The translations under genes were made by a program, and so were the position numbers. Source: a bacterium (lineage in GTDB: Bacteria > Acidobacteriota > Blastocatellia > HR10). From it: a stretch of DNA of 46,526 nucleotides. Positions 27,753-40,830 of this stretch are shown piece by piece. Under the pieces are notes generated by a model. The model was not told the DNA's origin, made no database searches, and saw only the letters and a list, made by a program, of their open reading frames with translations. The stretch is from NCBI GenBank assembly GCA_041640655.1, contig JBEPZV010000018.1, positions 1 through 46,526 of the forward strand. Direction: 5' to 3'. The first letter of the stretch is position 1; each line of letters opens with the position of its first letter.

Positions 27753-28858
27753 CGAAGCGGCTCACGCCCGAGGCCTTCCGAAAAGCCCTGGAGCGGGGGG
27801 AGATCGAACCGCTCTACCTCTTCACCGGATGGCTGCCGGAGGGCGCGCGGCGGACCGGGGAGGAGCCGATGTCTGCCCCGGAGGAATATCTGCTCGGCGA
27901 AGCTCTGCGCGCGCTCATCACCCGGGCGCTTGATCCGGCACACCGCGCGTTCAATCTCTCGCAATTCTCGGCGGTCGAGACGCCGCTTGCGGACATCCTG
28001 GCTGCGGCGCGTGAACTCCCCGTGTTCTCGCCCAGACGCCTGGTGATCGTGCGCGACCTGGATCAGCGACTGAAGGCTCCGGAAGGCATCTCAGGGGCTG
28101 CGGAGCCCGAGAGCGAGTCCGCGGCGCTCATCGAATACTTGAAACACCCGATCCCGACGACGACGCTTGTCTTCATCCTCGAACGCGTGGACCGCCGGCT
28201 GACGATTGTCACCGCCCTGATGAAGGCGTGCACGATCGTCGAATTCCGACGCCTCTCTGAACGAGAGGCGCTCGAATGGGTGAAGGGATATGTGCGCCGC
28301 CATCACGGCACCATCGAGGATGCGGCGGCGGCCGCTCTCGTGGGCTTGGTGGGAGCGGACCTGATGCTCCTGGCCGCTGAGCTGGACAAGCTCCTCACGT
28401 TCGTCGGCGAGCGCGGCCACATCACGCGCTCGGATGTAGAGGCGCTGACCGTGCGCCATCGCGAACACTCGAACTTCGAGCTGACGGATTGGATCCTCGC
28501 GCGCCGACCGGCGGCGGCCTGGCGCATCTTGCGCCGCCAACTCGATGCGGGCGAGGAACCGGTGAAGATCCTGGGCGCCATCGCCAGCCTCTACCGGCGC
28601 ATGCTCCTCGCCAAAGAACTGATGGCGCGCGGCGCGCCGAGCGCGGAGGTCGCGCGCGCGGCGGGACTGCCACCGCTGGCCGCCGGGAGATTCAACGAAC
28701 ACGTGCGACGCATCCCGCGCGAGGAGATCATCGCCGGCCTCCAGCAGATCGCGCGCGCGGATGACGCGCTCAAAAATTCGCTCGGGCCTCCTGACGCTCT
28801 TCTTGAATTCTTGATCTATTGCCTGTGCGCACCGGTCGAGGAGGAGACGACCGTCTGA
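27749..28858 (+). CDS. holA: DNA polymerase III delta subunit
   Basis: PLYLFTG...EEYL, FN, ELPVFSPRRLVIV, ELDKL, NFELTD; leuS-lptE-holA synteny. Confidence 0.88.
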   Translation: MTKRLTPEAFRKALERGEIEPLYLFTGWLPEGARRTGEEPMSAPEEYLLGEALRALITRALDPAHRAFNLSQFSAVETPLADILAAARELPVFSPRRLVIVRDLDQRLKAPEGISGAAEPESESAALIEYLKHPIPTTTLVFILERVDRRLTIVTALMKACTIVEFRRLSEREALEWVKGYVRRHHGTIEDAAAAALVGLVGADLMLLAAELDKLLTFVGERGHITRSDVEALTVRHREHSNFELTDWILARRPAAAWRILRRQLDAGEEPVKILGAIASLYRRMLLAKELMARGAPSAEVARAAGLPPLAAGRFNEHVRRIPREEIIAGLQQIARADDALKNSLGPPDALLEFLIYCLCAPVEEETTV

Positions 28859-29832: not shown

Positions 29833-31005
29833 ATGAATGTGACGTCACTCGTCTGCTCCAAATGCCACCGCTCCTATCCACCGGGGCGCGTCTATCAGCT
29901 CTGCGCGTGCGGCAAGCCGTTGCTGGTGCGCTATGATTTGGAACGAGCGGCGCGCACGCTCACGCGCGCGGCGCTCGCGCATCGGGAGCCGACGCTCTGG
30001 CGGTATCGGGAAGTCCTCCCCGTGGAGGATGAGGCGGCGATCGTCTCGCTCGGCGAAGGGTTCACGCCGCTGCTGGTGTGTCGCCGTCTGGCGGAGCGCG
30101 TGGGCGTTCGCGCCCTCTACATCAAGGACGAATCGGCGAATCCGACGGGCACGTTCAAAGCGCGGGGCATGGCCGTGGCCGTCTCCATGGCGCGACAGCT
30201 CGGCCTTCGACGCTTGGCCGTTCCGAGCGCAGGGAATGCCGCGGGCGCGCTCGCTGCATACGCCGCGCGCGCCGACCTGGAAGCCTTCGTCTTCATGCCG
30301 CGCGATGCTCCCGAAGCCAATCGTCGAGAAGCGGAACTCTACGGCGCGCGCGTCGTCCTGGTGGACGGCCTCATCACGGAGTGCGCGCGACGACTCGCCG
30401 CCGAGCAGACCGAGCAGGGGTACTTCGATGTCTCGACGTTGAAGGAACCCTATCGCGTTGAGGGCAAGAAGACGATGGGATACGAGCTGGTGGAACAACT
30501 GAACGGGCAACTCCCCGATGTGATCCTCTACCCCACTGGAGGAGGGACGGGATTGATCGGCATGTGGAAAGCGTTCGAGGAGATGGAAGCCCTCGGATGG
30601 ATCGGGGCGGAACGACCGCGCTTCTTCGCGGTTCAAGCGAGCGGATGCGCGCCGATCGTGCGCGCCTTCCAGGAGGGCAAGGCCGAGGCCGAGGAGGTCC
30701 GCGACGCGCACACGATCGCCGCCGGACTGCGGGTCCCTCGGGCGCTCGGCGATTTCCTCATCCTCGACATCCTGCGTCGCAGTCGCGGAGGAGCCATCGC
30801 CGTCGAGGATCATGAGATCGTGGAGGCCATGCGCGAGTTGGCTCGCCTGGAGGGGGTGTTCGCCGGCCCTGAAGGCGCCGCTTGTCTTCCCGCCCTCAAG
30901 AAGCTCCTCGCGCGCGGGGAGGTTCATCCCGAAGAGCGCATCGTCCTGTTCAACACGGGATCGGGGTTGAAGTCCCTCGACCTCTGGGATTCCGCCGCGC
31001 GATGA
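29833..31005 (+). CDS. thrC: Threonine synthase (Zn-ribbon N-terminus type)
   Basis: CSKC...CAC, SLGEGFTPL, NPTGTFKARG, SAGNA, EGKKT, PTGGG, NTGSG. Confidence 0.88.
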   Translation: MNVTSLVCSKCHRSYPPGRVYQLCACGKPLLVRYDLERAARTLTRAALAHREPTLWRYREVLPVEDEAAIVSLGEGFTPLLVCRRLAERVGVRALYIKDESANPTGTFKARGMAVAVSMARQLGLRRLAVPSAGNAAGALAAYAARADLEAFVFMPRDAPEANRREAELYGARVVLVDGLITECARRLAAEQTEQGYFDVSTLKEPYRVEGKKTMGYELVEQLNGQLPDVILYPTGGGTGLIGMWKAFEEMEALGWIGAERPRFFAVQASGCAPIVRAFQEGKAEAEEVRDAHTIAAGLRVPRALGDFLILDILRRSRGGAIAVEDHEIVEAMRELARLEGVFAGPEGAACLPALKKLLARGEVHPEERIVLFNTGSGLKSLDLWDSAAR

Positions 31006-37386: not shown

Positions 37387-37415
37387 TTGCCCATGGCGAA
37401 GGGGTATGGTACTTT
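37387..37415 (+). promoter_or_regulatory. sigma70 promoter TTGCCC-17-TACTTT (extended -10) for glmU-glmS
   Basis: -35 at 37387-37392, -10 at 37410-37415 preceded by TGn; SD GGGAGG downstream. Confidence 0.55.
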
Positions 37416-37437
37416 AGCCTCCGAAGGGAGGACGGCG

Positions 37438-38946
37438 ATGAGGCCGAATGTGGTGATTCTGGCGGCGGGTCTGGGGACGCGGATGCGATCGCGGCGGGCG
37501 AAGGTCTTGCATGAGCTGGCCGGACGACCACTCATCGCGCATGTCGTGCGCGCCGTGCTCGGCCTGCATCCGGCCCGAGTGATCGTCGTCCTCGGGCCTC
37601 AGGCCGAAGAGGTGCGCCGCGTCGTCGAGCGAGAGGTGGCGCGGGCCGTCGGTGGAGAAGGCGAGCGCCCGCACCTACTCTTCGCCCATCAAGATGAGCC
37701 GCGCGGCACCGGACACGCCGTTCGCGTCGCCCTGCAGGCGCTCCAGGTGCGAGAGGGGTCCCCCGATCTCCCGGAAGTGACCGACGGGGATGCGCTCTCC
37801 GCGGTGGAGCAGTGGCAGGATCCGGCGGTGTGGCACGAACCTCTGGTGATCCTCTACGGGGATCTGCCGCTGGTGCGCTCGGAGACGCTGGCACACCTTG
37901 TGCAGACGCATGCGCGCGGAGAGGCGGTCGCCACGCTCCTGACGATGCACCTGGAAGATCCCACTGGATACGGGCGGATCGTGCGCAGCGCGCACGGTGA
38001 CGTCGTCCGCATTGTGGAAGAGGTGGAGGCCCGACCCGAAGAGCGGGCGATCACTGAAGTCAACGCGGGCGTGTACGTCTTCGATCCGAAGCCGCTGCGG
38101 GGAGCGCTCGCTCGGCTGCGGCCGGAGAATCGGCGAGGCGAGTACTACTTGACGGATGTCGTGGGCGTGCTCACGAGTCTCGGCTATCGCGTCCGCGCGC
38201 TCGAGAGCGCGCATCCCGAGGAACTCCTCGGCGTCAACACGCGCGCGGAACTGGCGCGGGCGGACGCGCTGTTGCGTCGGCGCATTTGCGAGCGATGGAT
38301 GCAAGAGGGGGTCACGATCCTCGATCCGAGCACGACGCGCATTGACGCTGATGTCATCATCGGGATGGACACCATCGTGCATCCGCATGTGCACCTGGAG
38401 GGGGAGACGCGCGTGGGCGAGGCGTGCGAACTTCACGCCTGGACGCGGATCGTGGATTCGCAGTTGGGAGATCGGGTGATCGTGCGGAATTTCACGGTGA
38501 TTCAGGGGAGCCGGATCGGGAACGATGTGCGGCTGGGGCCGTTCGCGCACCTGCGGGGGGAGGTGGAATTGGCCGATGAGGTGGTCATCGGCAACTTCGT
38601 TGAGGTGAAGAAGTCCCGCATCGGGCGGCGGAGCAAGGCCATGCATCTGGCGTACCTGGGTGATGCCACGCTGGGGGAGCGGGTGAACGTGGGGGCGGGG
38701 ACCATCACCTGCAATTACGATGGGAAGCGGAAGCATCCGACCGTCATCGAGGATGATGTCCAACTCGGTAGCGACACGATGCTCGTGGCGCCCGTGCGCG
38801 TGGGACGAGGAGCGATGACGGGAGCCGGAGCCGTCGTCATCCGCGATGTGCCCGCGCGCACGCTCGTCGTCGGCGTCCCGGCCGTCCAGAAGAAGACGCT
38901 CGAAGAGACATCTCCGGAGGAATCCTCGTCATCTCCGGCGAGGTGA
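37438..38946 (+). CDS. glmU: Bifunctional UDP-GlcNAc pyrophosphorylase/GlcN-1-P acetyltransferase
   Basis: LAAGLGTRM, GTGHAV, YGD, GYGRI, EYYLTD, hexapeptide repeats, HLAYLGDA, CNYDG. Confidence 0.96.
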   Translation: MRPNVVILAAGLGTRMRSRRAKVLHELAGRPLIAHVVRAVLGLHPARVIVVLGPQAEEVRRVVEREVARAVGGEGERPHLLFAHQDEPRGTGHAVRVALQALQVREGSPDLPEVTDGDALSAVEQWQDPAVWHEPLVILYGDLPLVRSETLAHLVQTHARGEAVATLLTMHLEDPTGYGRIVRSAHGDVVRIVEEVEARPEERAITEVNAGVYVFDPKPLRGALARLRPENRRGEYYLTDVVGVLTSLGYRVRALESAHPEELLGVNTRAELARADALLRRRICERWMQEGVTILDPSTTRIDADVIIGMDTIVHPHVHLEGETRVGEACELHAWTRIVDSQLGDRVIVRNFTVIQGSRIGNDVRLGPFAHLRGEVELADEVVIGNFVEVKKSRIGRRSKAMHLAYLGDATLGERVNVGAGTITCNYDGKRKHPTVIEDDVQLGSDTMLVAPVRVGRGAMTGAGAVVIRDVPARTLVVGVPAVQKKTLEETSPEESSSSPAR

Positions 38947-38949
38947 CGG

Positions 38950-40830
38950 ATGTCGGGGATCATCGGATACGTCGGTCCGCGGCAGATCGTCCCCATTTTG
39001 CTCAACGGGTTGCGGCGTCTGGAATATCGCGGCTATGACTCCGCTGGCCTGGCCGTGGTGGATGAGGGGCGTCTGGAGGTGCGCCGTGCAGCGGGCAAGC
39101 TGCGGCATCTGGAGGAGTTGATCCGCCTTCACCCTCTCGACGGGACCTATGGGATCGGACACACGCGCTGGGCCACGCATGGACGGCCGACCGTGGAGAA
39201 CGCGCATCCGCATTGCGATTGCTCGGGACGTCTGGCCGTCGTCCACAATGGGATCGTGGAGAACTATCTGACGCTGAAAGGCCGGCTCCTGGCGGAGGGG
39301 CATACGTTTCGGACGGAGACCGACACAGAGGTCATCGCGCATCTGATCGAAGCGCATCTGGGCGAGCCGTCGGCGAGCGAATTGGATCCGGGCCTGCGCC
39401 TGGAGCGGGCCGTGCGCGCGGCGCTTCGAGAGATGACCGGCGTCTTCGCCCTGGCCATCATCTCGGCGGATGTGCCGGAGACCATCGTGGCCGTTCGACA
39501 AGGGCCGCCGGTCGTCATCGGCGTCGGTCGCGACGAATACTTCGTCGCCTCGGACGTGCTCGCTCTGCTCTACTACACGCGCGATGTCTTCTTCCTGGAG
39601 GACGGGCAGATCGCCACCCTCACGCGCCAGGGGGTTCGGGTGAGCGATTTCGAGGGGAATGCCGTGACCCCGCGCCTGGAGCGGATCGAGTGGGAGCCCA
39701 TCTTGGTCGAGAAGGGCGGCTTCCCGCATTTCATGCTCAAGGAGATCTACGAACAGCCGCGCGCGCTCCGCGATCTGCTCGCGGCGCACACGACCTCGGA
39801 TGGCCGGCGCGTCCGCTTCGAGGAGATCGAGCTGACCGAGGATCACCTCCGCGAGGTTCGCCACCTTCGACTCGTCGCGTGCGGAGGGAGTTGGCATGCT
39901 GCGCTCGTCGGTGAATTTCTGATCGAGCATCTCGCCCGGCTGCCGACCAAGGCGGAGTATTCGAGTGAGTTCCGGTATCGCGATCCGATCCTCGACGCGG
40001 GGACGCTCGTGGTCGCCCTCAGCCAATCGGGCGAGACGGCCGATACCCTGGCGGCCGTTCGCGAGGCGCGACGTCGGGGCGCCCCCGTGCTGGCCATCTG
40101 CAATGTGCGCGGCGCCACGCTCACGCGCGAGGCTCAGGGGACCATCTTCTTGCAAGCGGGACCGGAGATCGGCGTCGCCTCGACGAAGGCGTTCACGGCG
40201 GAGGTGATGGCCGTGTATCTGTTGGCCCTCTATCTGGCGCAGCAGCGCGGGCGGCTCGATGACGCGCGCGCCGAGCAACTGATGCGCGAGGCCTGGGCGA
40301 TCCCGGAGAAACTCGAACGCGTGCTCGCCACAGATGACGACCTGCGCGCGCTCGCCCGCGAGCTGGTGCGCGCGCCCGCCGCCTTCTTCCTCGGACGCGG
40401 CGTCAACTATCCCATGGCCCTGGAGGGCGCGCTGCTGTTGAAAGAGCTGGCCTATGTGTACGCCGAGGGGTATCCGGCCGGGGAGATGAAGCATGGGCCC
40501 AATGCCCTCATTGATGAGCACCTGCCAGTCATCGTGATCAACACGCGCGATCCGGATTCTCCCCTCTCGCAACTGCTGTACGAGAAGACGCTGGCCAACA
40601 TCGTCGAAGTGAAGGCGCGGGGGGGACAGGTGTTGGGGATCGTCACCGAGGGCGATGTGGAGGTGCGTCAGGTGGCCGATCGCATCCTGGAGATCCCATC
40701 GGCGAGCTATTGGCTCTCACCGATTCTCGCCATCGTCCCGTTACAATTGCTCGCCTATCACATGGCCGTCCTCAAGGGATGCGATGTGGATCAGCCGCGT
40801 CACCTCGCCAAGTCGGTGACCGTCGAATGA
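38950..40830 (+). CDS. glmS: GlmS-like glutamine--fructose-6-P aminotransferase with non-canonical active site (Cys1->Ser)
   Basis: EYRGYDSAG, GHTRWATHG, HNG, SQSGETADT, EMKHGP, LAKSVTVE; N-terminus is MSGIIG rather than MCGIIG. Confidence 0.9.
   Translation: MSGIIGYVGPRQIVPILLNGLRRLEYRGYDSAGLAVVDEGRLEVRRAAGKLRHLEELIRLHPLDGTYGIGHTRWATHGRPTVENAHPHCDCSGRLAVVHNGIVENYLTLKGRLLAEGHTFRTETDTEVIAHLIEAHLGEPSASELDPGLRLERAVRAALREMTGVFALAIISADVPETIVAVRQGPPVVIGVGRDEYFVASDVLALLYYTRDVFFLEDGQIATLTRQGVRVSDFEGNAVTPRLERIEWEPILVEKGGFPHFMLKEIYEQPRALRDLLAAHTTSDGRRVRFEEIELTEDHLREVRHLRLVACGGSWHAALVGEFLIEHLARLPTKAEYSSEFRYRDPILDAGTLVVALSQSGETADTLAAVREARRRGAPVLAICNVRGATLTREAQGTIFLQAGPEIGVASTKAFTAEVMAVYLLALYLAQQRGRLDDARAEQLMREAWAIPEKLERVLATDDDLRALARELVRAPAAFFLGRGVNYPMALEGALLLKELAYVYAEGYPAGEMKHGPNALIDEHLPVIVINTRDPDSPLSQLLYEKTLANIVEVKARGGQVLGIVTEGDVEVRQVADRILEIPSASYWLSPILAIVPLQLLAYHMAVLKGCDVDQPRHLAKSVTVE

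Follow-up and report, generated by a model that had tools for sequence, protein, structure and literature searches.

The gene at positions 38950..40830 (forward strand) of the window, the 46,526-nucleotide stretch of DNA analysed here, is a genuine, clade-wide and selected variant of glmS whose product departs, as judged from its sequence, from what is expected of a catalytically active GlmS. In our favoured reading, to which we give a probability of roughly 45%, the protein would be a pseudo-GlmS that binds glutamine but has lost glutaminase activity and adjusts the supply of hexosamines, plausibly by forming mixed dimers with a Cys1-carrying copy (Cys copy) encoded in the same genome.

The Ser1 glmS gene and its substitutions

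The open reading frame encodes 626 amino acids, with a glutaminase domain (about aa 1-250) followed by two SIS domains (about aa 255-626), and its product can be aligned to E. coli GlmS from end to end; residues are numbered here as in E. coli GlmS, from the K-12 record, with Cys as 1. The TIGR01135 profile matched residues 3-626 with 778 bits (cut-off 418), and the NagB-II and GlmD profiles gave 104 and 94 bits (cut-offs 430 and 580). The original prediction described an intact, full-length gene beginning 3 nt after the glmU stop codon. This was confirmed, as the frame runs without interruption on the forward strand and the stop TGA at 38944-38946 closes the glmU ORF (37387..38946, forward strand, taken from the first TTG to the stop), which lies directly 5' of Ser1 glmS in 8/8 genomes of the family. 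In all members of the genus the two genes share a frame and are separated by a 3-nt spacer after a TGA or TAA stop (window 38940-38952), and their GlmU contains a short insertion and ends in a low-complexity tail. A GlmU-GlmS read-through fusion was considered and dropped, because a Shine-Dalgarno-like GAGGTGA overlapping the glmU stop explains the 3-nt spacing and because in the sister genus the genes are 76 nt apart with no shared frame. Neither a glmS ribozyme nor another cis RNA was detected at the gathering score in six sources. Among contigs from RNA runs, the gene was matched in one run only, with a 0.14 word share, and this run may be DNA.

The N-terminus of the protein reads MSGIIG, the codon TCG (38953..38955) placing Ser at the position of the catalytic Cys1 (C1S). 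Codon GGG (39886..39888) gives T302G in the sugar-hydroxyl/phosphate loop, which reads CGGS, and CTG (40435..40437) gives K485L, a genus-specific loss of a sugar-binding lysine of the catalytic site (a role described in passages of PMC7000685). All three codons were re-read as originally stated. Two further changes had escaped the first inspection: N600H (CAC, 40801..40803), where the C-terminal lid begins, found from the alignment and a broad panel of GlmS proteins, and the minor S379A (GCC, 40114..40116), Ala being present in 3/147 proteins of that panel. The alignment also bore out the claim that the glutamine-binding motifs, E488, H504 and K603 are retained. Residues R73, W74, T76, H77, H86, N98, G99 and D123 of the glutamine pocket and oxyanion hole are kept, as are the general base E488 (40444..40446), H504 of the trans-acting His loop (40492..40494), K603 (40810..40812), S303 and S347-T352 of the phosphate loop, the channel residues and the C-tail. 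Where an active GlmS is expected to carry an N-terminal Cys1 and, as sugar-hydroxyl ligands, T302 (or Ser) and K485, the window protein has Ser, Gly and Leu. Its AlphaFold model was uninformative (pLDDT 71, below 50 across most of residues 1-91 and 482-521).

Sequencing error had been judged unlikely from the codons themselves, and the relatives support that judgement. C1S, T302G, K485L and N600H occur together in 5/5 other full-length genes of the genus and in 8/8 full-length genus-type metagenome loci (82-100% DNA identity where aligned), and the Leu codon at position 485 varies among genus-type loci (CTG, TTG, CTC or CTT); sequencing error is therefore rejected. Recoding of TCG as Cys was also ruled out: TCG encodes the conserved S349, S401 and S604 of the same gene, and TGC is retained in the PurF gene of this genome, which points to the standard code. 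In the broad panel of 147 Cys1 representatives sharing less than 50% identity (147 of 150 matches), K485 is found in 147/147 and N600 in 146/147, while position 302 is Thr in 121, Ser in 26 and Gly in none; the residues of the Ser copy at sites 1, 302, 485 and 600 are each absent there. Given this near-invariance, the changes are not due to chance. Of the 85 near-invariant sites of the panel, the Ser copy breaks only C1, S379, K485 and N600, with T302G in addition.

Two glmS copies in one acidobacterial family

A second glmS beginning MCG, whose search elsewhere in the genome had been proposed, is present on contig C33 (8667-10490, minus strand), where it closes a cluster of genes for glycosyltransferases, epimerases, a carbamoyltransferase and a flippase-type product. 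Among 61 genomes searched, all 8 belonging to the window's family have two GlmS matches, and each of the 8 carries a Ser1 copy after glmU (one of them, of 284 aa, ending at a contig edge) together with a copy having Cys1, T302, K485 and N600. The substitutions are thus clade-wide and co-occur with a Cys1 glmS in 8/8 family genomes, the co-occurrence that had been suggested as a check. The six complete copies of the genus have C1S, T302G, K485L and N600H, and of these four the sister genus shows just C1S and T302G, which indicates that the changes arose stepwise; this distribution shows C1S and T302G at the level of the family and K485L and N600H at the level of the genus. Outside the family, all of the 27 genes inspected, from 24 of 52 matching genomes, encode Cys1, T302 and K485. 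Among 120 listed homologs, 13 are of the genus type (one without its N-terminus), 4 are of the sister-genus type and 103 keep T302, K485 and N600, 101 of the latter showing Cys1. The source databases label the homologs as Blastocatellia and annotate these proteins as working GlmS. Named records carrying the Ser1 gene bear the names Blastocatellia, Acidobacteriota, Bacterium HR08 and HR10 and, in one case, Clostridia.

The Cys copy breaks none of the 85 near-invariant sites apart from one T402S, and it retains H504 in 8/8 family genomes. Candidates for complementary damage in this copy (S401A, P506V/A and H493P) were discarded, being all present in the natural panel, against which only Y497C and P321R are rare. 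An exact 81-bp repeat of the 3' end of the Cys-type glmS was observed on contig C33 (7788-7868 and 8668-8748), flanking two small genes, one of them an aspartyl-protease-like ORF, beside a tRNA. The structure looks like a small insertion into the end of the gene, and the arrangement is absent from the loci of the 7 relatives. In another genome (G015), a second Cys1 glmS copy has its C-terminal tail out of frame.

In quick and FastTree phylogenies, the Ser copy was nested among ordinary single-copy GlmS of Blastocatellia, and the Cys copies formed one fast-evolving clade that free trees set outside the acidobacterial group. A tree joining both copies was better by 7.8 log-likelihood units (p-AU 0.69), and the nearest hits of the Cys copy outside the family were GlmS of the same order. 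On both grounds a horizontal origin of the Cys copy is not established, and a duplication in the ancestor of the family fits.

Nei-Gojobori dN/dS ranged from 0.081 to 0.190 for the Ser copy (21 pairwise comparisons among 7 genomes, without the 284-aa copy), from 0.069 to 0.259 for the Cys copy and from 0.030 to 0.072 for single-copy GlmS (7 pairs, most with saturated dS). Simple decay, for which substitutions private to one genome and a dN/dS near 1 had been anticipated, is at odds with these values for the Ser copy, far below 1, and with the sharing of its substitutions. The Ser copy combines the loss of a catalytic residue with an intact ORF and purifying selection, three of the features expected of a pseudoenzyme. 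When scaled to glmU, median rates of the glutaminase and isomerase domains (from pairs that are not independent) were 0.57 and 0.73 in the Ser copy (15 pairs) and 0.49 and 0.38 in the single-copy GlmS of another family (28 pairs); the isomerase domain of the Ser copy is about twofold freer than that of single-copy GlmS and the glutaminase domain about as slow. Rates relative to glmU were 1.33 for the Cys copy, 0.42 for normal GlmS and 0.66 for the Ser copy, so that the Cys copy evolves about three times faster than normal GlmS and about twice as fast as the Ser copy, which is itself more conserved than glmU. A comparison with 73 canonical rows, most of them acidobacterial, showed the Ser copy to differ at 0/71 conserved glutaminase sites (C1 aside) and at 14-16 of 112 isomerase sites, many of the latter differences being natural variants elsewhere. 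By these comparisons, its changes are targeted and not diffuse. Slow decay of a redundant duplicate is accordingly very improbable: the relaxed isomerase domain would agree with it, and loss is a real endpoint elsewhere (14 of 121 Bryobacterales genomes lack a full-length GlmS and have just a stand-alone NagB-II-like SIS protein), but the ORF is intact in 7/7 complete copies across dS above 1.2 with dN/dS of 0.08-0.19, the gene outdoes glmU in conservation, and the changes affect a small number of key sites, leaving the glutamine pocket untouched.

Possible roles of the Ser1 copy

Passages of PMC9272926 describe Cys1 as the sole catalytic residue of the GlmS glutaminase site, attribute isomerisation to E488, H504 and K603, and state that free ammonia is not used. 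As Cys1 is the only glutaminase catalytic residue, we infer that the Ser copy does not hydrolyse glutamine; with its pocket preserved, it would still bind it. C1S mutants of class II amidotransferases lose glutaminase activity yet bind glutamine. In the isomerase site, the equivalents of T302, S401 and K485 and the His of the other subunit bind the sugar hydroxyls, and that of K485 is counted among the catalytically relevant residues (from passages of PMC7000685). With T302 and K485 lost, two of these four ligands are gone, and the phosphate loop, E488, H504 and K603 remain; the Ser copy's own sugar site is probably crippled. Teplyakov reportedly suggested in 1999 that K485 may deprotonate O1. 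The intact Cys1 paralog likely makes glucosamine-6-phosphate (GlcN6P).

Because the nucleophile is gone, the glutamine pocket intact, the sugar site altered, the trans-acting His loop kept and the paralog always present, a glutamine-binding dead subunit fits best. The original prediction had left three options, of which the dead, ligand-sensing protein is the one that gains; a Ser-nucleophile or ammonia-dependent enzyme, and an enzyme for a different sugar or amide donor, may still apply, chiefly in the sister genus, where K485 is retained. In the mechanism that we propose, the Ser copy would bind glutamine as a signal without hydrolysing it; its effect would be to adjust the supply of amino sugars, the most plausible setting being a mixed dimer with the Cys1 paralog. 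More speculatively, a glutamine-bound Ser subunit might lend its His504 loop to the partner site, or lock that site, and so set its activity. Several points weigh against such a pseudo-GlmS: it retains E488, H504 and K603 as well as the residues of the phosphate loop and the channel, the fast evolution of the Cys copy is odd for a sole GlcN6P supplier, and the genome also encodes a RapZ-like protein that could sense GlcN6P. A PF01933 match considered as GlmR proved to be CofD, beside CofC.

The retained E488, H504, K603 and phosphate serines could also belong to a glutamine-gated GlcN6P deaminase or an ammonium-dependent synthase, that is, a NagB-II-like enzyme whose glutamine domain does not hydrolyse, closed by bound glutamine and possibly acting on a changed sugar. 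This is the main rival reading, which we regard as possible but rather unlikely. The NagB-II site residues given in passages of PMC10201695 are the equivalents of H504, E488 and S303/S347, and the title of a cited reference reports that glutamine inhibits the ammonia-dependent activity of Cys-1 asparagine synthetase mutants. The genome encodes NagA as well as a MurQ-like protein, none of the 8 family genomes has a NagB-I above the cut-off, and a weak stand-alone SIS protein is found in only 4 of the 8. However, NagB-I was above the cut-off in 0/31 sampled Blastocatellia, so the gap is not specific to the family, and passages of PMC9272926 and PMC10087520 describe GlmS as irreversible and unable to use ammonia. 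K485 is replaced by Leu in the window's genus, whereas it is invariant in the 147 representatives and kept even in the 12 stand-alone SIS deaminase-like proteins inspected; the deaminase or synthase explanation is strongest for the sister genus, where K485 is kept. The stand-alone SIS-SIS protein of the window's genome (contig C16, 42330-43361) is GlmD/AgaS-like below the cut-off.

No phosphoglucose isomerase (PGI) family match was found in the window's genome, and PGI-like activity of GlmS is mentioned in passages of PMC7948480, from which the Ser copy could be pictured as a stand-in PGI. This replacement was rejected as hardly credible, since the genome is 89.8% complete and 7/7 family relatives carry a PF00342 match, as do other Blastocatellia. 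On contig C1, a PF01182 (6-phosphogluconolactonase-like) gene is split by about 1.5 kb (28323-28739 and 30251-30427).

For the subunit arrangement of the preferred reading, the dimer of the Ser and Cys isomerase domains was predicted with a score of 0.94 (best of three controls, 0.00), a run agreement of at least 98% and a pLDDT of 92; the score mark applied is reached by 116/157 solved complexes and 2/215 mismatches. This pass reflects only the likeness to solved GlmS dimers, from which it is expected, and the predicted Ser/Cys heterodimer is in that sense allowed. GlmS is described in passages of PMC10087520 as being in a dimer-hexamer equilibrium. Within each copy the own interface is conserved between two species (57/59 and 53/59), and between the Ser and Cys copies 39/59 predicted interface positions are identical, compared with 44/57 between E. 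coli and a Blastocatellia protein, which gives no sign of co-conservation of the two predicted interfaces. With its own H504 retained in every family genome, the Cys copy needs no His donor.

Loss of Cys1 elsewhere and comparison with known systems

Cys1 has been lost elsewhere. A DNA pattern with fixed spacing and with Cys codons excluded, which also misses AGY-encoded Ser, Gly, Arg and Trp so that its counts are lower bounds, gave at least 39 loci in a species-level genome collection (Ser 25, Ala 5, Tyr 4, Phe 3, Val 1 and Ile 1), 5 of them in the window's family, and at least 44 loci in metagenomes. On a 138-row FastTree, Cys versus Ser/Ala/Pro requires 11 changes (5 Phe/Tyr/Ile rows uncounted, with long-branch warnings). 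Nitrospinota have a glmU-linked C1S/Q348E GlmS and a divergent Cys1 copy, and a Tectomicrobia genome has, about 4 kb apart, a C1S/H504Q copy and a Cys1 copy belonging to the same divergent type. A further metagenome group of Ser1 GlmS has C300S, with N600H and E351A also present in one member. Convergence across phyla at T302 and K485 was mostly withdrawn, as T302S is natural in 26/147 Cys1 proteins. K485 is kept in the Nitrospinota genes and in an Omnitrophota gene; outside the window's genus, the only changes at this site are those in 16 Bryobacterales rows and one metagenome gene.

Among the 121 Bryobacterales genomes, 24 have a Cys-less GlmS, 22 of these being deeply altered and 2 plain C1S. 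The 22 altered copies have lost the glutamine pocket, mostly keep E488 and H504, and show dN/dS of 0.07-0.15; in the loci inspected they often follow genes that we take to be yidC/mnmE-like. A second GlmS match above the family cut-off was found in 0 of the 24 genomes, at least 11 of which are near single-contig, so a GlmS partner is unnecessary for retention there and a heterodimer cannot be the general function of Cys-less GlmS. A Ser1 clade in Dethiobacteria/Bacillota is near-canonical otherwise, with dN/dS of 0.05-0.07, is mostly the sole copy found in its MAG, and has one Cys1 gene within it; this keeps readings in which the enzyme still works alive for the milder variants.

For the window protein, it is improbable that Ser1 is a working Ntn nucleophile and the protein an active glutamine amidotransferase, perhaps on another sugar phosphate. 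In its favour, conservation is complete at the oxyanion hole, R26, D29, W74, T606 and the channel, the Ser copy is better conserved than the Cys copy, and the Cys-less clades that are retained carry Ser or Ala/Pro, with Ser reached through both TCN and AGC codons and premature stops in 1/25 Ser loci compared with 4/9 Phe/Tyr/Val/Ile loci. These small residues, however, may be selected only to keep Met removal, T302 and K485 are missing from the sugar site, every family genome has an intact paralog, and in class II amidotransferases the C1A mutation removes the glutamine-dependent activity (passages of PMC6342913).

Tentatively, the glutamine-binding reading could be extended to a wider one, in which bacteria would have repeatedly turned GlmS into a non-hydrolysing sensor of glutamine or sugar phosphate, the dead housekeeping copy being in this family the regulatory subunit of an active paralog. 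If true, this would be a protein-level control of hexosamine synthesis beside the known ribozyme and RapZ/sRNA systems, and the first natural class II amidotransferase pseudoenzyme of such a kind. The repeated losses, including those in Bryobacterales genomes without a Cys1 GlmS, also imply that some bacteria must obtain GlcN6P otherwise. Cys1 is regarded as invariant and databases call these proteins working GlmS; a full-text literature search, with most subscription journals outside its coverage, found no report of a natural Cys-less GlmS. The Ser copy, the intact paralog and the sister-genus intermediate form a series for testing Ser1 catalysis, ammonia use or reversal, and regulation by a dead subunit.

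With GlmS/GFAT (EC 2.6.1.16; TIGR01135; E. coli PDB 4AMV and 1JXA) the window protein shares the two-domain architecture, glutamine pocket, E488, H504, K603, C-tail and place after glmU, and differs by C1S, T302G, K485L and N600H. As in engineered Cys1 mutants, namely asparagine synthetase C1A/C1S and E. coli GlmS 3OOJ, which we take to be a C1A mutant, the nucleophile is removed and the ligand sites are left; here, by contrast, the change arose in nature, is shared by a whole clade under purifying selection and comes with sugar-site changes. The 3OOJ structure is described in passages of PMC10087520 as an inactive GlmS hexamer. NagB-II and GlmD have the same isomerase fold, the His and Glu catalytic pair and a Ser/Gly-type residue at 302 (Ser51 in NagB-II, according to passages of PMC10201695) but, unlike the window protein, have no glutaminase domain and keep K485. 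NodM-type proteins are accessory GlmS encoded within a glycan cluster. The family likewise has a second GlmS in a glycan locus, but with the roles seemingly inverted, the intact copy being the accessory one and the glmU-linked copy the altered one. Finally, the herpesvirus vGAT is a dead glutamine amidotransferase acting via an active homolog (passages of PMC7605207); it is viral and of the class I (PFAS) fold, whereas the window protein is bacterial and of the class II Ntn type, and its partnership with the Cys copy is a proposed one.
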